IMG/VR virus record: IMGVR_UViG_2698536361_000001
Origin: a virus
Lineage: Duplodnaviria; Heunggongvirae; Uroviricota; Caudoviricetes
Reading direction: 5' to 3' (one strand)
DNA length: 33,224 nt
Part shown: one piece after another, positions 1-32,813 of the stretch
Numbering within the stretch: the stretch's first letter is position 1
Layout: every line of letters starts with the position of its first letter
Notes under the pieces: model-generated
Database searches by the model: none
What the model saw: only the letters and a program-made list of their open reading frames with translations
Told to the model about the DNA's origin: nothing
Translations under genes and position numbers: made by a program

Positions 1-18
1 GCGGCATAATCCCAATGA

Positions 19-147
19 TTACTCCCTGACAGGGTTCGTAGGCCACTCAATATCAGGTGCAGTTGATGTATCAACACGGTTCAGCAGCATCCGATACTTT
101 TTCCAGGCTTCCAGCAACGGGGTTTCTTCCTCCGTTGCATATACAGC
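19..147 (-). pseudogene. tfa: 3' remnant of a tail fibre assembly (Tfa) gene: 42 codons, no start codon, in-frame TGA immediately upstream
   Basis: Minus-strand frame translates to [42 protein letters not shown], matching the conserved C-terminus of lambda-family Tfa proteins as I remember them; lies directly downstream of the stop of the 158..451 ORF. Confidence 0.55.
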
Positions 148-157
148 TCACCTTTTT

Positions 158-451
158 TCACCCACGATTAACCAACAGCCAGACCAGCAGACACGCCACC
201 ACCGGCACAGCAAAATCCATCAGGCTTGCCACATCCCATGCACGTGTATCAAAACCGCCCCACCACGGCATATTCATTCGCTTGCCATGCCCGAACATTT
301 CGATCCAGCGATATTCTGCCTGGGTGTGTTCACGCGCAATGAAGAACGTACAACCGGCTATCGCCCCGTAAGCCCAGTTCCCGGTAAAAAGACCAATCAG
401 TAGCTGCGCAGCCACAGCACAAAGCGCATGAAGGAAAGGTGTTATATCCAT
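158..451 (-). CDS. Hypothetical small membrane protein (about 97 aa from MDITPF; the ORF track extends to 466 with a non-ATG first codon)
   Basis: ORF 158..466; AGGA 5 nt upstream of the ATG at 451; three hydrophobic stretches (e.g. ALCAVAAQLLIGLF, AVPVVACLLVWLLV); no family recognised. Confidence 0.5.
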   Translation of the reverse strand: MDITPFLHALCAVAAQLLIGLFTGNWAYGAIAGCTFFIAREHTQAEYRWIEMFGHGKRMNMPWWGGFDTRAWDVASLMDFAVPVVACLLVWLLVNRG

Positions 452-460
452 TTTCATCCT

Positions 461-488
461 ACCCAATAAAACGGGGCGCTCGGCCCCT
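461..488 (-). terminator. Putative intrinsic terminator downstream of the 346-aa gene
   Basis: Minus-strand GGGGC-CGAGC-GCCCC hairpin followed by GTTTTATTGGG. Confidence 0.4.
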
Positions 489-493
489 TAATA

Positions 494-1534
494 TTATTTA
501 GACGCAAGCGCCGCCTCAATTGCAGATAATCTTTGTCTTAATTCTGCGTTTTCTTCTTCCAGTGCTGTTATTCTGTCGTCTGACTCTCTGGCTACCTGAA
601 CAAGCAAGCCAGTAACACCAGAATAATCTACTGTGTAATAACGTTCACCTTCTTCACCTTCCGATCCGCTCGCACCGTCCTGATATTTCATTGCGGAACC
701 TACAACTTCTGGGATTGCTTCCAGAGCTTCCTGTGCAATGACACCAGCATAGGGCATACCGTTTTCTTTAAGCGTGTATGTATAGCCGTTCATTTTACGG
801 ATGCGGTCGGTTGCATTATCGATCACCTGAATGTTGTCTTTCAGATCCCGGTCGGAATGCTGGTTAAATGCGGTGGCATGACATGCACCATTAACGCTTA
901 ACATATAGGTGTTATCGGTATTTTTCTGCGCATAGAACATATAAGCGCCACCATCAACACCGACTTCATAAACAACAGGACGGCTGGAGTTGCCCCACAA
1001 TTGAGCAGTAACACCAGCATAAGCGGTTCCCTGTGTGTTTAATGTCATGGTTGACCCATGATTGGCATATTTGATCTGTAATGTGTCGGTGTAATCAAAT
1101 TTAATAAGCGCGTTACTTCCACGCTTGCTGTATGACATAAGGCAGTTACCCATTTTGAGGTATCCGCTGTCACCGGGAAAAATCATCGTACCGCCATAAA
1201 GGTTGGTAAAGTCCCAGCAAATGTTTGTCCCGTTATCGTTCAGGTTAAGGCGCGCCATTGCGTTACCTGGACTGTCTATCCATTTTTTGAGGTATAGTTC
1301 GCAATACGCATCCTCAACACCTGCCGTCCTGTGAGTTGAGCGGAGTTTTCTCCCAAATATAGCTCCGCTAGTTGGCAATACCTGCTGATACCATGAAGCA
1401 GACCAGTCACCAACGATTTCATCTTTGCTGTCTACATATAATTTTGTTGCGTAGCTTCCTTGATCGTTTTTTAATTTGCTAACGTCGGATTTTAGCGTTT
1501 TGATGTCATCAGGAATTACTGTCGATGTAGCCAT
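494..1534 (-). CDS. Tail fibre / tailspike-like protein (346 aa) with a C-terminal intramolecular chaperone (peptidase S74-like) autoprocessing domain
   Basis: ORF with AGGAAGAAAA-ATG RBS; C-terminal 120 aa show the S74 pattern (HSDRDLKDNIQVID...GVIAQEALEAIPEVV...coiled coil RITALEEENAELRQRLSAIEAALASK), as in T5 pb1 and endosialidase chaperone domains. Confidence 0.7.
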   Translation of the reverse strand: MATSTVIPDDIKTLKSDVSKLKNDQGSYATKLYVDSKDEIVGDWSASWYQQVLPTSGAIFGRKLRSTHRTAGVEDAYCELYLKKWIDSPGNAMARLNLNDNGTNICWDFTNLYGGTMIFPGDSGYLKMGNCLMSYSKRGSNALIKFDYTDTLQIKYANHGSTMTLNTQGTAYAGVTAQLWGNSSRPVVYEVGVDGGAYMFYAQKNTDNTYMLSVNGACHATAFNQHSDRDLKDNIQVIDNATDRIRKMNGYTYTLKENGMPYAGVIAQEALEAIPEVVGSAMKYQDGASGSEGEEGERYYTVDYSGVTGLLVQVARESDDRITALEEENAELRQRLSAIEAALASK

Positions 1535-1543
1535 TTTTCTTCC

Positions 1544-1825
1544 TCACATCCAGCCACGAAGTTGATGCTCAACAGCAACCACGTATTCATCGAATAATGA
1601 CGATATTTGCGAATCATTAATGATGCGCACGTTTACAAAATATCCGTCTTCCTTAACACATACCGGTTCGCCATCTTCAGTCAGTTCTCCGGTTTCTTTG
1701 TACACGTTACCTATCACGTCGATAAGAATATCATCCTGCATCGACTCGTCATCATAATAGCCAATACTCTCCATAAAGGCCGAAAAGTCGGCCCTGTCTT
1801 CAAATTTGAGTGTTAAATCTTTCAT
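1544..1825 (-). CDS. Hypothetical acidic 93-aa protein, translationally coupled to stf
   Basis: ATG at 1825 overlaps the stf stop as TAATG; Asp/Glu-rich; no family recognised. Confidence 0.55.
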   Translation of the reverse strand: MKDLTLKFEDRADFSAFMESIGYYDDESMQDDILIDVIGNVYKETGELTEDGEPVCVKEDGYFVNVRIINDSQISSLFDEYVVAVEHQLRGWM

Positions 1826-4035
1826 TAGATTGACTCCCCCATTTGTGCCTCAGTTAATTCTTTATGCCAAATGCGTAAATTTTTCACATGACCGAACAGG
1901 TGTCTGTTGCCACTGGATGATTGTCCACCGATATTAATATTACCGGCAGTATAACGTTGCAATGTATGCAGAGACGGGGAGCTGCCACCTAAAATTCCAT
2001 CAACAACAACCTGCAACTGTTTATCTTCTGTAAACTTAAAGCCAGTAACAAATTTCCTTTTCTCTCTATTCCCATATGCTTTATATTCTGTTTTTGTTCC
2101 TTTGCCATTGGTGATAATTAGCCTTTTACCACGAGTGGTAAAACCAAAATACATATAACTTTCATCAGAAACTTCAGTCGTCGCCCCTGTAATTGAGATA
2201 TTAAGCAAACGCGCAGAGCCTTCTAAATTAGGCATTTCAGAATCCCAATTAACATTAACTTCCATGAGAACACTAACTGGTGGAGTTGCCCAATTGAAAG
2301 GTATAGGTATGATTACCTGGTCACTTGCTCTCGTGGCACCGACCTCTGTTGTGATGATAAAAGATGACGCGTTTAGTCCCTTTTCGAATTGAGGGGTTGT
2401 TAACATTAATTTATCGCCAGACTTGATTGATCGTTGATGTGCTCCAAACTCAAAACGCCCATACATATTTTTTGCTTCTGGTGATTTGTAGGTAAACTCA
2501 ACACGAATCCATCCATTAGACTCTCTGAATATGTTATAAGTTGCCGCCTCACCTCCAGAATAACTCAACATATCGCCAGTCTCGCAATCAATATATGCGC
2601 CAGCGGTCAGTGTGTTACTTGAGCCATCGTCGTTAACATATGATATTCTTGGACGCAACGTGATAATACCATCCCCACTTACTTTTTTAACTCTGCAGGA
2701 TAAAGTAACTGATTCATTTGCCGAAACTGAAATAACCCTGGTATATCCAGTAGAAATTAATGTCGCCCTTTCAGTTGTGGATGTTTCTTTAACGCCAAAC
2801 AAACCATAACTGAAACCATACTCATCAACTCCCGTGGTAATAGTTAAGTTAGCAGTGTCATAGTTCCACGATACTGGTGTATTCGTATAAGAAAAAGTAT
2901 TCGTTCTCTGACCTTCAATGAGCAGACCATCTTTTTCAAAACGTGGTTCATTTATCGCTGATTCAGCAAAACACCCAGACTTATCTATATACGTTGCAGT
3001 TGACGCCCTGGTAAATGAAACAACCTTTTCAGACGGCAATGCAATAACATCGTCACCAACTGTGATGCTCTTATATCCAGGAGCAAACCCGGTAATCATA
3101 TCCAGTGAATCGTTAAACGGTATCCACACCTCAGGTAACGGCTGTAAGACATATTTATACGGCTCCGCAGCCTGGCTTGCGTACTCTCTGGCTGCATCTT
3201 CGCTTGCTTTAGCTGCCGTCTGGCTTGCTGCCGATGCTTTCGCTGAGTTCGCAGCCGCTGTTTCGCTCGCCTTTGCGTTGGTTTCACTGGTTTTTGCTGC
3301 TTTTTGACTGTTAGCTGATGCAGTGGCAGAAGCAGCCGCCGCACTTGCAGAACCAGCTGCAGCACTCTCGCTTTCGGCTGCTGCAGCCTGACTACTTTTC
3401 GCCGCAGTTTCGCTGGCTTTGGCATTCGTTTCGCTGGTTTTCGCTGCCGTCTGGCTGGACTTCGCGTTGGTTTCGCTCGTCTTTGCGGCTGTCTCACTGT
3501 TTTTCGCGTTGGTTTCTGATTTTTTGGCTGCAGTCGCGGAGTTTGCCGATGCAGTCTGTGAGGCCGCTGCCGCCTGTGCGCTGTTAGCTGCGTTCGTTTC
3601 TGAGGTTTTCGCCGCGTTCTTCGATGATGCCGCTGCTGTTTCGGATTTCTTTGCCGCCGCTGCGCTCTGAGAGGCGGCTTCAGCGTTGCGTGCCGCTTCT
3701 TCCACCATTTCCTCAAAACGACGCAATGCCTCCGGCATGACATCATCTTCCGTCATGGCACCGAGAAAATCATTCAGCGTCCCCGGCTTAGAATCTTCAT
3801 ACACGGTGATGGTCCCGGCATGTGAAGGCGGAAAACCTTCAACCAGCAGGATAACGCTGTACTGGCCATACTCAACATCCATGCTGTAACGCCCGGCTTC
3901 ATCCGGATTTTCAGAGGCCACCGTGTTCACCAGTACCGTGGTGCTGTTACGCTTTGCCTTCAGTTGAATAGTGCAGTTCTGTATTGGTTTTCCCGCACCA
4001 TCTTTCAGCACACCTGAGATTTTTACTGCTGCCAT
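1825..4035 (-). CDS. stf: Side tail fibre protein Stf, chimeric: lambda-like N-terminus, Ala/Ser/Thr-rich repeat shaft, divergent C-terminal region ending in a LamG/ConA-like motif
   Basis: N-terminus MAAVKISGVLKDGAGKPIQNCTIQLKAKRNST matches lambda Stf; repeat units KTSETNAKxS; C-terminus GHVKNLRIWHKELTEAQM resembles a LamG jelly-roll end. ATG at 4035 preceded by GGAG (the ORF track starts at a GTG at 4041). Confidence 0.85.
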   Translation of the reverse strand: MAAVKISGVLKDGAGKPIQNCTIQLKAKRNSTTVLVNTVASENPDEAGRYSMDVEYGQYSVILLVEGFPPSHAGTITVYEDSKPGTLNDFLGAMTEDDVMPEALRRFEEMVEEAARNAEAASQSAAAAKKSETAAASSKNAAKTSETNAANSAQAAAASQTASANSATAAKKSETNAKNSETAAKTSETNAKSSQTAAKTSETNAKASETAAKSSQAAAAESESAAAGSASAAAASATASANSQKAAKTSETNAKASETAAANSAKASAASQTAAKASEDAAREYASQAAEPYKYVLQPLPEVWIPFNDSLDMITGFAPGYKSITVGDDVIALPSEKVVSFTRASTATYIDKSGCFAESAINEPRFEKDGLLIEGQRTNTFSYTNTPVSWNYDTANLTITTGVDEYGFSYGLFGVKETSTTERATLISTGYTRVISVSANESVTLSCRVKKVSGDGIITLRPRISYVNDDGSSNTLTAGAYIDCETGDMLSYSGGEAATYNIFRESNGWIRVEFTYKSPEAKNMYGRFEFGAHQRSIKSGDKLMLTTPQFEKGLNASSFIITTEVGATRASDQVIIPIPFNWATPPVSVLMEVNVNWDSEMPNLEGSARLLNISITGATTEVSDESYMYFGFTTRGKRLIITNGKGTKTEYKAYGNREKRKFVTGFKFTEDKQLQVVVDGILGGSSPSLHTLQRYTAGNINIGGQSSSGNRHLFGHVKNLRIWHKELTEAQMGESI

Positions 4036-4046
4036 ATCCACTCCAC

Positions 4047-4073
4047 AAAAAAGCCCGCCTGAACCGGCGGGCT
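4047..4073 (-). terminator. Intrinsic terminator between lom and stf
   Basis: Minus-strand AGCCCGCC-loop-GGCGGGCT hairpin followed by TTTTTT. Confidence 0.55.
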
Positions 4074-4099
4074 GTCATAACACTGTGTTACCTGGCTAA

Positions 4100-4699
4100 T
4101 CAGAACTTATAACCGACACCCACGATGAAACCGTCAGTGCGCCAGTCACCACTGCCGGAGCCTTCATAAGCAATATCAATGGCCACGGATTCGGTCGGGT
4201 TAAACTGCACGCCAGCTCCCCACGCCAGAGACGTGTTGCTGTGGCGACCGTCATCACTTCCGGTCAGCACATCGTGCGTTTTCCCCTTGTTGTCAGTTAC
4301 GCGGAGGTAATCCCCGGAAAAAGTCGAAACACGGCTGTAAGCCATACCCGCCATCGCATACGCGCTGAACCATTCATTCACGCGCACAGACGGCCCCGCC
4401 ATCACGCTGAACCAGCGGTTACGCACGGAATCTTTATGCCAGCGGGTATCGCTGTAACGGGTCAGCTGACGATTCTTGTATCCTGCATAACTGAATGACG
4501 TCACCAGCCCCAGCGTGTCCGTAAATTCATAACGGTATTTCACGTTAATGCCCTTCAGGTCATCACTGCCTGGCATATCAGTATGGGTCTGAAGATACCC
4601 GGCGCTTAGTGTGGACTGATGCTCTGCTGCGCTCGCTGGCGTACCAGCGGCAACCAGCCAGACTACTGCGGACAGAATAACAGCACATAATTTACGCAT
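4100..4699 (-). CDS. lom: Outer membrane protein Lom (Ail/Lom family beta-barrel)
   Basis: 199 aa, signal peptide MRKLCAVILSAVVWLVAAGTPASA, ends ...GFIVGVGYKF; matches lambda Lom; RBS GAGAGG before the ATG. Confidence 0.9.
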   Translation of the reverse strand: MRKLCAVILSAVVWLVAAGTPASAAEHQSTLSAGYLQTHTDMPGSDDLKGINVKYRYEFTDTLGLVTSFSYAGYKNRQLTRYSDTRWHKDSVRNRWFSVMAGPSVRVNEWFSAYAMAGMAYSRVSTFSGDYLRVTDNKGKTHDVLTGSDDGRHSNTSLAWGAGVQFNPTESVAIDIAYEGSGSGDWRTDGFIVGVGYKF

Positions 4700-19230: not shown

Positions 19231-22911
<3,681 letters not shown>

Positions 22912-26301: not shown

Positions 26302-27384
26302 ATGAAAAAATTAACAGTGGCAATTTCTGCTGTAGCTGCATCAGTACTGATGGCGATGTCTGCTCAGGCAGCTGAAATTTATAATAAAGACAGTAACAAG
26401 CTGGATCTATACGGGAAAGTTAATGCCAAGCACTACTTTTCCTCTAATGATGCAGATGATGGTGATACTACTTATGCCCGTCTTGGCTTCAAAGGTGAAA
26501 CCCAAATCAACGATCAACTGACTGGTTTCGGTCAGTGGGAATATGAATTCAAAGGCAACCGTGCTGAATCTCAAGGTTCTTCCAAAGACAAAACCCGTCT
26601 TGCATTTGCAGGCCTGAAATTTGGTGATTACGGCTCAATCGATTACGGCCGTAACTACGGTGTAGCATACGACATCGGTGCGTGGACTGACGTCCTGCCA
26701 GAATTCGGTGGTGATACCTGGACCCAAACAGATGTGTTCATGACTGGTCGCACCACAGGTGTTGCAACCTATCGTAACAACGACTTCTTTGGTCTGGTCG
26801 ATGGCCTGAACTTTGCTGCTCAGTATCAGGGTAAAAATGACCGCACTGACGTAACTGAAGCCAATGGTGATGGTTTCGGTTTCTCCACTACTTATGAGTA
26901 TGAAGGATTCGGCGTGGGTGCAACCTATGCTAAATCAGATCGCACTGACGGTCAGGTCGCCTATGGTAAGAGCAAATTCAATGCCTCCGGCAAAAATGCG
27001 GAAGTATGGGCTGCAGGCCTGAAATATGATGCGAACAATATCTATCTGGCTACCACATATTCTGAAACTCAGAATATGACCGTTTTTGGTAATAACCATA
27101 TTGCAAACAAAGCACAAAACTTTGAAGCAGTAGCACAATATCAGTTTGACTTCGGTCTGCGACCATCTGTTGCTTACCTTCAGTCAAAAGGTAAAGACCT
27201 TGGTGTTCATGGTGACCGAGACTTAGTCAAGTATGTCGATGTCGGTGCTACTTACTACTTTAATAAAAACATGTCCACTTTTGTTGATTACAAAATCAAC
27301 TTAATTGACGATAGTAAGTTTACCAAAACAGCTGGTATTGATACCGACGACATCGTCGCTGTAGGTCTGGTTTATCAGTTCTAA
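26302..27384 (+). CDS. nmpC: Outer-membrane general porin, OmpC/OmpF family (phage-borne NmpC/Lc type)
   Basis: 360 aa, signal peptide ...AMSAQA, porin C-terminus ...VAVGLVYQF; matches NmpC/Lc as remembered. Confidence 0.95.
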
Positions 27385-29929: not shown

Positions 29930-30937
29930 TTGTATGGTATGTCAATGGCCATGTCGGTCGGGAGTTGTGCAACACCTGTCCAGACTAATTTTCCTGGTTA
30001 CACCCCGGGTGCAGATATCATTAGTGTTTCACCCACCAGAAACCAGGTCGATCTCATTGGTGATGTTGTTTATTCCCAGATAAAAGGAACTCGTTCTGTC
30101 AGACAGCTTCACATGTCAGTTCTTGTCCCGCGAACAAATGATTTAAAACCAGCCATTATTTATTATCCCGGCGGCGGATTCATGTCTTCTGAACATGACA
30201 AATTTATTGAAATGAGAATGGCTCTGGCTGAAGCTGGTTTTGTTGTGGCCGCTGTAGAATACAGAACAATTCCTGATACATTTCCAGCACCAGTTGAGGA
30301 TGGGAAAGCTGCAATACGTTACTTGAGAGAACATGCCAGCGATTATGGGATTGATCCTCAAAGAATCGGAGTTCTGGGTGACTCTGCCGGTGGATGGCTT
30401 GCCCAGATGATGGGAACTACAAATGGTGACAAAACCTTTAATAAAGGTGACTTTCTTCAGCAATCAGCAGATGTTCAGGCAGTTGCCACACTTTATGGGA
30501 TTTCTGACTTGTTGAATATTGGCGAGGGGTTCCCTGAATCAGTGCAGGAGGTTCATCGATCTCCTGCCGTAACCGAAGCCTTAATGATCAATGGCCCTGC
30601 ATTCAGAAGTTTTGCGGGAGCCCCCATAACAGCGTCAAAAGAAAAAGCGCTAAACGCCAGTCCAATCGGACATATGAAAGGAGTAAAACCCCCATTTCTT
30701 ATTATGCATGGTAGCAAAGACACTCTGGTTTCACCTGAGCAAAGCGCCAAACTATTCAGGATGTTGAAGAAGAACGGCGATAACGCTGAGTACGTTCTGG
30801 TAGAAGGGGCTGAGCATGGCGATAATACATGGTATCAGCCAATTATTATAAACAGAGTTGTTGAGTGGTTTACTAAAAACCTGGGAACCCCCATAAAAAC
30901 CGCTACCCAACAACAAAAAACAAACGCTGACCTGTAA
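29930..30937 (+). CDS. Alpha/beta-hydrolase esterase/lipase (HSL-like), probably an ex-lipoprotein with a damaged 5' end
   Basis: Oxyanion-hole YPGGGF, nucleophile elbow GDSAGG, downstream Asp/His (HGSKDT, AEHGD). First codon of the listed ORF is TTG; in-frame ATG-TAA at 29885..29890 precedes a lipoprotein-like leader. Confidence 0.75.
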   Translation: MYGMSMAMSVGSCATPVQTNFPGYTPGADIISVSPTRNQVDLIGDVVYSQIKGTRSVRQLHMSVLVPRTNDLKPAIIYYPGGGFMSSEHDKFIEMRMALAEAGFVVAAVEYRTIPDTFPAPVEDGKAAIRYLREHASDYGIDPQRIGVLGDSAGGWLAQMMGTTNGDKTFNKGDFLQQSADVQAVATLYGISDLLNIGEGFPESVQEVHRSPAVTEALMINGPAFRSFAGAPITASKEKALNASPIGHMKGVKPPFLIMHGSKDTLVSPEQSAKLFRMLKKNGDNAEYVLVEGAEHGDNTWYQPIIINRVVEWFTKNLGTPIKTATQQQKTNADL

Positions 30938-31286: not shown

Positions 31287-32813
31287 TCAAAAATAAATCT
31301 CACCATCAACCATATATTTAAGAGTACTTATCGCCTGCTGGGCGGATATTACTTTCATTAAAGGATAGTGTTTAAAAACAATGCCATTCATAAAATAGAT
31401 ATCACAGGTTTTATTATCTGTATTAATTATAATTTTTTCGAATATTTTATAGGCAAGTGTACGACATAGCTCTCGCCCATTTTTACTGGTTAAATCAATA
31501 GCATGAAAATCACCAAGTGAACTCACCCCTTTACTCTTCAAAGTTTTTAATGATACCGAAGCCCTTCGTAATTCCTTATCTAATAGTCTTATTTTCTCTG
31601 CTATAGCGGTAACTTCAGGCGCGACAGACAATGCAACGATTAAATTATTAATTTTCATCTGAAGCTCAATAATTTTTAACTCTAAAGTTTCATTAGCATC
31701 TTTCTTGTTTTCAACTGGTTGAATTTTGCTACAATTAAAAAGCAATTCATTAATGATATTATAATCAACCAAATCTCTTTTTATTGATGGTCTGTCACAT
31801 CGATGTAATCTTCTCATCGGACAAACATAATAGCCATGCAAACTTCCAGATACCGCATGAACAATCATGGTATTACCACAAGCCTCACACTTCATAACTG
31901 TTCGAAGTAGATTTATTAGCATAGGATTCTTGCTACTATTGCTAATACCAAAAGGTGCCAACCGAATTTCCTGTACAGCGTAAAACAAATCATCTGATAT
32001 GACTCTGGGATAATAGCCAGCGATTTCACTTATCCCTTTCCCTCTTGCACGATATGAAGGTACGCATATACCTATCAGAGCTTTATTCGCTAATAATTTT
32101 TCAATTACAGAAGGTCCCCATGCACTTTCTTTTCCTGAGAAATTCTTTACAGCATGATCATTTAAATACTTGGCTATTGCATTCAATGAGCGCCTTTCCA
32201 TCCTGAGTTTAAAAATTAGCTCAATAGTTTTCACCCTGTCGGGGTCTGGAACAAAAGCCGTTCTTTTGTCATCCAATGAGAGCCATCTCGGACAAGAAGC
32301 CGTCATAATCGTGCCTGACTCCAGTGCATCCTGCCGTTTTTTCTTCCATGATAATTTAACCCGACTTGACTTTATCTCGCTTTCTTCATTTGCCCTTTGT
32401 GCTATAAGTATGGCTTTTATTAATGAATATGGCTCATTCAATGAGTCAATATTATAGACTGTATTATCGCAAAGAGTTATAACATCAATACCGTGATTCA
32501 AAATCAATTTCAGACGCTCAATCGCTTCACCGACTTTTTCTCTTGAAAGTCTGTCCAGACTTTCAACTAACAATGTAGTCCCTGGCAATATATAACCATG
32601 TTCTATAGCATCTAAAAATTCCGAAAAAGCTCCTGATTGTGCATGCTTTCCATTGAATGCGCTTAACCCCAAATCTTCATACGTTACGGTATCAAGGTAA
32701 TAATCACTATTTACCTTTAGCCATTCAGTAATAAGCCTTCTCTGGCGGTTTAATGAATCACCAGACATCTGACCTGGTGATGAAAATCGCATATATGCTA
32801 TGGCTTTTTTCAT
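31287..32813 (-). CDS. ybcK: Large serine recombinase (YbcK-like, resolvase/invertase catalytic domain plus C-terminal zinc-ribbon)
   Basis: 508 aa; N-terminal AIAYMRFSSPGQ catalytic-serine motif; Cys cluster CEACGN...CPMRRLHRCDR. Confidence 0.9.
   Translation of the reverse strand: MKKAIAYMRFSSPGQMSGDSLNRQRRLITEWLKVNSDYYLDTVTYEDLGLSAFNGKHAQSGAFSEFLDAIEHGYILPGTTLLVESLDRLSREKVGEAIERLKLILNHGIDVITLCDNTVYNIDSLNEPYSLIKAILIAQRANEESEIKSSRVKLSWKKKRQDALESGTIMTASCPRWLSLDDKRTAFVPDPDRVKTIELIFKLRMERRSLNAIAKYLNDHAVKNFSGKESAWGPSVIEKLLANKALIGICVPSYRARGKGISEIAGYYPRVISDDLFYAVQEIRLAPFGISNSSKNPMLINLLRTVMKCEACGNTMIVHAVSGSLHGYYVCPMRRLHRCDRPSIKRDLVDYNIINELLFNCSKIQPVENKKDANETLELKIIELQMKINNLIVALSVAPEVTAIAEKIRLLDKELRRASVSLKTLKSKGVSSLGDFHAIDLTSKNGRELCRTLAYKIFEKIIINTDNKTCDIYFMNGIVFKHYPLMKVISAQQAISTLKYMVDGEIYF

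Follow-up and report, generated by a model that had tools for sequence, protein, structure and literature searches.

An orphan 3' end of tfa at the right-hand junction of a replaced tail-fibre block in lambda-like prophages of Escherichia coli

Results

Gene order around the fibre block

The window, by which we mean the whole 33,224-nt stretch analysed here (IMG/VR record IMGVR_UViG_2698536361_000001), is a lambda-like prophage that carries on its minus strand Q, the lysis, terminase, head and tail genes, J, lom and stf. Many E. coli chromosomes contain the same sequence at the icd (phage 21) attachment site, where sitABCD converges from the window's left on a short fragment of tfa, here termed tfa-prime, giving the order J-lom-stf...tfa-prime-sitDCBA-icd'. 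Elsewhere in the window are a plus-strand porin gene (26302..27384) situated between the oppositely oriented Q and lysis genes, a plus-strand BD-FAE/alpha-beta hydrolase gene (29930..30937) and, close to the window's far end, a large serine recombinase (31287..32813, minus strand).

Two blocks of lambda homology, both on the minus strand, frame the fibre region. The left block (3683..4227; lambda 19458..19999) covers the end of lom, the intergenic region and the first ~117 codons of stf. The right block (1..139) comprises the last 39 codons of tfa (22..138), the stop codon and 18 nt of post-tfa DNA, and the similarity continues beyond window position 1. The 3.5 kb between the two has no similarity to lambda DNA; this foreign block stands in for the distal part of lambda stf and the first ~155 codons of tfa. 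Its left breakpoint is the inner edge of the left homology block, a boundary (~3680-3698) common to HK629 and many Stx phages. On the right, an initial annotation of this DNA had taken tfa-prime to mark the breakpoint of a fibre-module replacement. The restriction of lambda similarity to 4227..3683 and 139..1 places the right-hand edge of the replaced block there, with the refinement that the junction abuts a small membrane-protein gene and that the fibre gene next to it would be a separate mosaic piece, added later.

Read towards tfa-prime, the region begins with stf (1825..4041, minus strand), which joins a lambda-like N-terminal domain to a foreign C-terminal part (spike-fibre, Laminin_G_3). 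Its Ala/Ser/Thr-rich repeats (AAKTSETNAK-type, 3096..3746) give rise to long spurious ORFs in further reading frames of both strands, among them one of 216 aa in another minus-strand frame and one of 129 aa on the plus strand. A gene for a 93-aa protein of phrog_1361 (1544..1825, minus strand) sits where lambda has tfa; its start overlaps the stf stop, both touching position 1825, and lambda tfa overlaps the stf stop too. It is followed by the gene of a 346-aa tail fibre with a C-terminal Peptidase_S74 intramolecular-chaperone domain (494..1534, minus strand), a gene that only some relatives carry. The right boundary of the S74 gene maps to ~460-493, with phage matches ending at 460 versus 500. 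A terminator-like hairpin, GGGGCCGAGCGCCCC then GTTTTATT (473..487, minus strand), lies between the S74 and membrane-protein genes and coincides with the mosaic boundary beyond which relatives with and without the S74 gene differ.

The imported fibre block ends with a gene for a 97-aa small membrane protein of phrog_1443 (158..451, minus strand; TTG-extended to 466), which stops at a TGA (158..160) in another frame than tfa-prime. The phage 21 record lists it as 'putative membrane protein', with two TMDs. Searches of Pfam, NCBIfam and PHROG matched both this protein and the 93-aa protein to PHROGs of unknown function only; the membrane protein may be holin-like, act in exclusion or have another role. 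In E. coli phages, the 97-aa two-TMD protein always closes the imported fibre block.

Homologues of the membrane gene with 53-63% identity occur in Aeromonas, Comamonas, Pantoea, Silvania and Leclercia, and none of these non-Escherichia homologues is followed by tfa-prime. A LamG-type fibre is encoded upstream of the homologue in Pantoea and Comamonas, and in Pantoea a weak homologue of the 93-aa gene (33% over 69 aa) precedes it. From the upstream genes in these two genera and the missing tfa-prime outside Escherichia, the fibre tip, the 93-aa gene and the membrane gene appear to form one imported unit that closes with the membrane gene. The 93-aa protein, for which a single-sequence AlphaFold model reached a pLDDT of 47.7, too low for use, may be a cognate chaperone of the imported fibre tip, and this, if true, would explain why tfa was redundant. 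In Comamonas prophages, the membrane homologue is located between fibre genes and ORFs that by eye resemble lysis genes, being peptidase/lysozyme-like and Rz-like.

Tfa-prime is the C-terminal end of a tfa gene

Tfa-prime is an orphan frame of 42 codons plus a TAA stop (19..21) at 19..147 on the minus strand, and translation of this strand bore out the initial description of it. An 18-nt spacer (140..157) separates the stop of the membrane gene from the onset of tfa homology, so that the junction lies at about 139/140. The spacer contains the in-frame TGA (148..150) that had been reported immediately upstream; it is the codon directly 5' of the frame.

The proposed resemblance to the Tfa C-terminus was recovered at both the protein and the nucleotide level. 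The Pfam profile PF02413 (Caudo_TAP) matches tfa-prime with E 1.9e-16 and 60.9 bits (cut-off 22.1) over profile positions 95-130 of 131, a stretch that includes the conserved C-terminal segment (...DIEWP...), and PHROG tail-fibre-assembly families match with E 1e-11 to 1e-17, at C-terminal profile positions only. In blastn searches lambda tfa aligns with 89% identity over 141 nt (E 3e-47; lambda 22437..22576), and the 3' end and flank of K-12 tfaD with 92% over 175 nt, through the stop into the flanking hairpin. By eye, the tfaD alignment has zero mismatches from just past the codons changed from V to M/Leu through the stop and ~20 nt beyond. A tblastn comparison, suggested as a check in the initial annotation, aligned lambda Tfa by residues 156-194 only (85% amino-acid identity), and the C-terminal alignment of K-12 TfaD is confined to residues 149-187 (95%). 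With these two queries, no other tfa-derived piece was found in the 33-kb window. TfaD residues 1-78 match 22757..22542, where they are 64% identical to the N-terminus of the prophage large terminase. This identity argues that the match is no tfa piece and that K-12 tfaD (locus L113, 4535..5098) is itself, judging from the alignment, a deletion fusion of terminase and tfa.

Tfa-prime thus resembles lambda tfa (orf-194) and DLP12 tfaD in its last 39 codons, its stop and the hairpin that follows, including the CCGCAG...CTGCGG stem. Unlike them, it lacks a start and the first ~155 codons, which correspond to the N-terminal four-fifths of the Pfam profile (~95 positions, ~150 residues in lambda). 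A tfa gene has its own start directly after the gene of its cognate fibre, and the two usually overlap. Tfa-prime instead follows a membrane-protein gene with no cognate stf C-terminus adjoining, and the neighbouring fibres are of other types, namely the LamG/spike-fibre tip and the self-chaperoning S74 fibre. The membrane protein does not resemble Tfa (best blastp E 1.5), in keeping with the earlier statement that the neighbour is unrelated and in a different frame.

A C-terminus only, a headless frame, a stop upstream and an unrelated neighbour all agree with the initial verdict of a recombination scar rather than a functional gene. The remnant is already annotated: PGAP/RefSeq labels the identical sequence in UPEC132 (window positions 19..138) a pseudogene, with the entry 'tail fiber assembly protein; incomplete; missing N-terminus'. 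Like other tfa pseudogenes of prophages (K-12 tfaX-like), tfa-prime combines partial tfa homology and an incomplete reading frame with a place between the fibre and cargo genes of a lambdoid prophage.

The absence of a start codon, also claimed initially, holds for the head of the frame, which contains no ATG, GTG or TTG. It does not hold further in, where a TTG is codon 11 and an ATG codon 20, and the ORF listing contains a TTG-initiated ORF of 32 aa at 19..117. A GGAGG is located 11 nt upstream of this TTG; intact lambda tfa reads GAAGG at the equivalent spot, and since so similar a sequence occurs within an intact gene, the motif is no evidence of use. A simple promoter/terminator scan found no promoter-like sites around the fragment. 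By inspection, the A-run GTGAAAAAAGG resembles a slippery site, and we considered a recoding fusion, by frameshift or readthrough, of the membrane gene and the remnant. Such a fusion is impossible, as the membrane frame stops before the A-run and the tfa frame meets a TGA right after it.

The junction is shared by many phages and E. coli genomes

The junction TGAAAAAAGGTGAGCTGTATA|TGCAACGG, in longer form ...GTTAATCGTGGGTGAAAAAAGGTGAGCTGTATA|TGCAACGGAGG..., is identical in phages 21, 2E9 (Lambda_2E9), 2G7b and PhiR63_1 and in the UPEC132 prophage, and all 30 phage matches listed (the best 30 of 81 records) span it. With a 91-nt query centred on the junction (window 100..190) and at least 80% coverage required, 2704 occurrences were found, spread over 1737 of 5426 complete E. 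coli genomes. The scar initially described is therefore present in this prophage and by no means specific to it. The unit of membrane gene and tfa-prime is mosaic on both sides. Upstream lies an S74 fibre gene at 100%, 84% or 79% identity, a different gene of ~700 nt or, in phage 21, nothing; downstream follow sitD, pin, a ybcY-like methyltransferase gene or other sequence. Because the junction is identical across phages, is spanned by 30 of 30 listed matches and recurs in 1737 genomes, we infer that the scar is old and shared by descent from one ancestral event.

For a non-circular test we scanned IMG/VR with a pattern internal to the membrane gene, which returned at least 120 stretches; about 83 contigs were classifiable by their downstream sequence. 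Among the matches listed, ~53 of the ~83 carry the tfa-prime junction after the membrane gene (type A), making it the commonest of at least four right-hand junctions. Another 21 (type B) have a few alternative last codons followed at once by the CCGCAG...CTGCGG hairpin and the same sequence downstream (79% over 102 nt), with no tfa-prime. Different flanks follow in two sets of four contigs each (types C and D), and one further contig falls outside types A-D. By this comparison, the remnant is apparently dispensable in an otherwise equivalent architecture.

The end of the remnant co-varies with the downstream cargo

Different versions of the distal third of the fragment go with different genes after it. 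A tail of ...DIEWPALP leads to pin in 23 of 23 copies, and ...DIEWP(T/V/A)N(P/S)VRE to a ybcY-like methyltransferase gene in 20; in K-12 DLP12 such a methyltransferase gene likewise follows tfaD. The window-type tail, of the ...WP(T/V/A)N(P/S)VRE class, is followed by sitD at +347 (2 copies), and a phage 21-type deletion by sitD at +87 (11 copies). These tails are also found on intact tfa genes. Substitutions in the head of the fragment that are unique to orphans each pair with two to four different tails, and all four gametes are present, which argues for crossovers within the ~120 nt after the truncation.

The strict link between tail and cargo would also be expected if the fragment had come with the downstream DNA, each block (sit, pin or methyltransferase) bringing its own tfa 3' end. 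The arrangement in DLP12, where tfaD with an intact end precedes ybcY just as tfa-prime precedes the methyltransferase gene in 2G7b, fits such an origin, as does the identity of at least 92% between the window type and K-12 tfaD through the stop into the flank. Yet the proximal part of the fragment and its exact junction with the membrane gene are constant in all cargo types, and the orphan-specific head substitutions pair with several tails. A constant junction combined with shuffled heads and tails points to one truncation followed by homologous swaps, not to repeated insertions at the same nucleotide, and we regard a separate origin with each cargo as very unlikely indeed. For the distal codons, it refines the single-truncation reading more than it competes with it.

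Exchange of this kind has precedent. Lambda has exchanged DNA with the Rac and Qin prophages via regions of identity in stf/tfa, and one third of the right-hand crossovers between lambda and Rac fell in a 95%-identity region of tfa (De Paepe et al., 2014; PMC3945230). Crossovers inside tfa are common to the present case and those mosaics, which arise by relaxed homologous recombination of lambdoid phages with defective prophages, and the swapping of tails and cargo is what the mechanism predicts. Unlike there, one partner here is merely a 120-nt remnant, and the truncating event itself has no flanking homology; it looks illegitimate, unless its traces have been erased.

Copies of the remnant are disrupted independently

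Phage 21 has the same membrane gene and junction, the first ~20 tfa-derived codons, sitABCD and the icd attachment site. Unlike the window, it is without the S74 fibre gene and has a further deletion of 260 nt that removed the rest of the remnant and the hairpin. This deletion, in which position ~82 is joined to sequence near sitD so that 1..81 (minus strand; part of remnant and flank) is absent, also occurs in Lambda_2E9-type phages; 11-12 IMG/VR contigs carry it as well. Codons ~20-42 and the hairpin are gone, and sitD starts 87 nt after the junction instead of 347 nt in the window type. By inspection, a short TGCTG-type repeat seems to be present at both ends of the deletion. The corresponding loci are L002 5985..6077 in phage 21 and L003 6806..7157; in the phage 21 record, the stretch between CPT_21_24 (the membrane protein) and sitD is unannotated.

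Other copies are damaged in different ways. Truncation leaves 25 codons in two of them and 14 in one. Of two IMG/VR contigs (L244/L218), one has its copy cut by an IS end, TGAACCGCCCCGGG..., right after the junction, and the other has it cut after nine codons and fused to C-terminal tyrosine-recombinase-like (integrase-like) sequence. One copy has a frameshift of 1 nt, and at an Escherichia sp. locus the remnant is divided over two frames. Substitutions found in orphans only are S10P, L12R, W15R/L, V20M and the allele AAWKAC for EAWKKY. They fall in a core over which 79 intact tfa genes show a single variant, A to V (2/79), and none of the orphan substitutions (0/79).

The open frame of 39-42 codons is nevertheless kept in 71 of 88 copies. 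Synonymous and non-synonymous polymorphisms do not differ between orphan (22/17) and intact genes (17/11; Fisher p = 0.80), in a comparison weakened by a narrow intact sample (94-100% identical to lambda Tfa) and by orphan variation that is largely imported from intact alleles. Substitution patterns alone therefore do not establish relaxed constraint; what speaks against function is the structure, together with the independent disruptions and absences. Nothing in these comparisons indicates a coding function of the remnant.

These data bear on the possibility that the remnant is translated from the internal TTG (32 aa) or ATG (23 aa) into a micro-protein equivalent to the conserved C-terminal segment of Tfa, which would act in fibre assembly or on fibres encoded by co-resident prophages. 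Most copies keep the frame open, no segment of the Tfa family is better conserved, and the ORF at 19..117 has its GGAGG. Surroundings similar to those of the TTG, however, occur in intact tfa, where they encode TEEETSLL, and are inherited rather than evolved for initiation; the ATG (V to M) is missing from the majority of copies. Phage 21-type copies have lost everything past codon ~20, 21 contigs among the matches listed have no remnant at all, and the core has accepted radical changes (W to R, L to R, EAWKKY to AAWKAC). Neither NCBIfam nor PGAP counts the remnant as a gene. A micro-protein is, in our view, hardly credible.

A conserved hairpin follows the remnant

Directly past the tfa stop, lambda, K-12 DLP12, 2G7b and this prophage share the conserved CCGCAG...CTGCGG hairpin, its pairing kept despite sequence differences. 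It maps to L003 6960..7012, mostly left of window position 1, with window 1..7 forming the first arm. The main hairpin has a dG of -18.6 to -24.4 across the lambda, DLP12, 2G7b and window types, and the window-type sequence in L003 has a folding z of -4.4 on the minus (late-operon) strand. Given its position between the convergent late operon and sitD, the hairpin is likely, as a prediction, to terminate transcription between the two; the simple terminator scan did not call it.

Rfam RF02111 (IS009) matches window 62..160 with 62.8 bits and E 1e-13, far below the gathering threshold of 117. The alignment covers only the last ~70 model positions, which are unstructured, instead of the whole model, and requires large internal deletions. 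The K-12 seed of IS009 is located inside the tfaD coding sequence of DLP12 (L113 4857..5055). We therefore rejected an IS009 small RNA, as the match restates the tfa homology. Rfam IS009 is built on tfaD coding sequence, and caution is advisable since matches to it in prophages largely report tfa 3' homology. The sRNA svsR of NC-SV-like icd prophages was also rejected, because it is located elsewhere, at the 3' end of cI.

The fragment might still have been kept as an RNA element, be it a 3'UTR-derived or IS009-like sRNA or part of the terminator between the convergent late operon and sitABCD. The IS009 match and the strongly folding hairpins directly past the stop, with a stem preserved despite sequence differences, are what such a role would lead one to expect. 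Against it, the matched IS009 columns contain no base pairs and their score is far too low, the hairpin lies outside the fragment and almost wholly left of window position 1, it made no impression on the terminator scan, and in type B contigs it persists without tfa-prime. We consider retention as an RNA element very unlikely.

Discussion

The observations are very probably explained by a non-coding relic at 19..147, in which the last 39 codons of a TfaD/lambda-type tfa are preceded by three unrelated codons and a stop, left by one replacement and since then a target for crossovers. A single old recombination in a lambda-like phage would have exchanged the distal end of stf and the first ~155 tfa codons for foreign DNA. 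The incoming foreign block would have brought the fibre tip, the 93-aa gene and the small membrane-protein gene, its right end being joined inside tfa. Transcription of the remnant, which has neither a start nor a partner fibre, presumably occurs only at the 3' end of late-operon transcripts, upstream of the hairpin.

About 120 nt of it have remained 89-100% identical to the 3' ends of many intact tfa genes of E. coli prophages, and this high identity would keep the remnant a passive target for homologous recombination. Crossovers inside it may then have linked one fibre block to sitABCD, as here, to the pin invertase or to the ybcY-like methyltransferase. We infer that the remnant serves as a passive crossover site between a tfa-less fibre block and interchangeable cargo; nothing suggests selection for this role. 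That it was retained as a selected homology adapter, or is expressed as a peptide of 23-32 aa or a 3'UTR RNA, appears improbable. If true, such an adapter would let tfa-less fibre blocks keep swapping sitABCD, pin and methyltransferase cargo with tfa-bearing prophages.

As a gene, the remnant is of no importance, and its value, as a marker, is modest. Its junction, which about one in three complete E. coli genomes contains, marks a single ancient exchange of a tail-fibre block, and the way the remnant's tail switches with the cargo illustrates, in nature, how short conserved gene ends serve as sites of crossover in lambdoid mosaicism.

Partial tfa frames also occur in K-12. We take tfaS in CPS-53 to be an annotated tfa remnant of a cryptic prophage. 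The tfaX of DLP12 resembles tfa-prime in being a partial tfa frame in the equivalent of the prophage 'b-region', near the cargo genes ybcY, appY and ompT. It differs in being a middle piece that ends with ...EIATEEERSLLEA* and stops roughly where the conservation of tfa-prime starts, whereas tfa-prime complements it as the 3' end and adjoins a foreign fibre block. Serial insertions of cargo seem to leave stacked tfa remnants. In 2G7b (L001 4941..5239) and at several IMG/VR loci, further tfa fragments with frames of 89 codons, like tfaX, are located beyond the ybcY-like methyltransferase gene.
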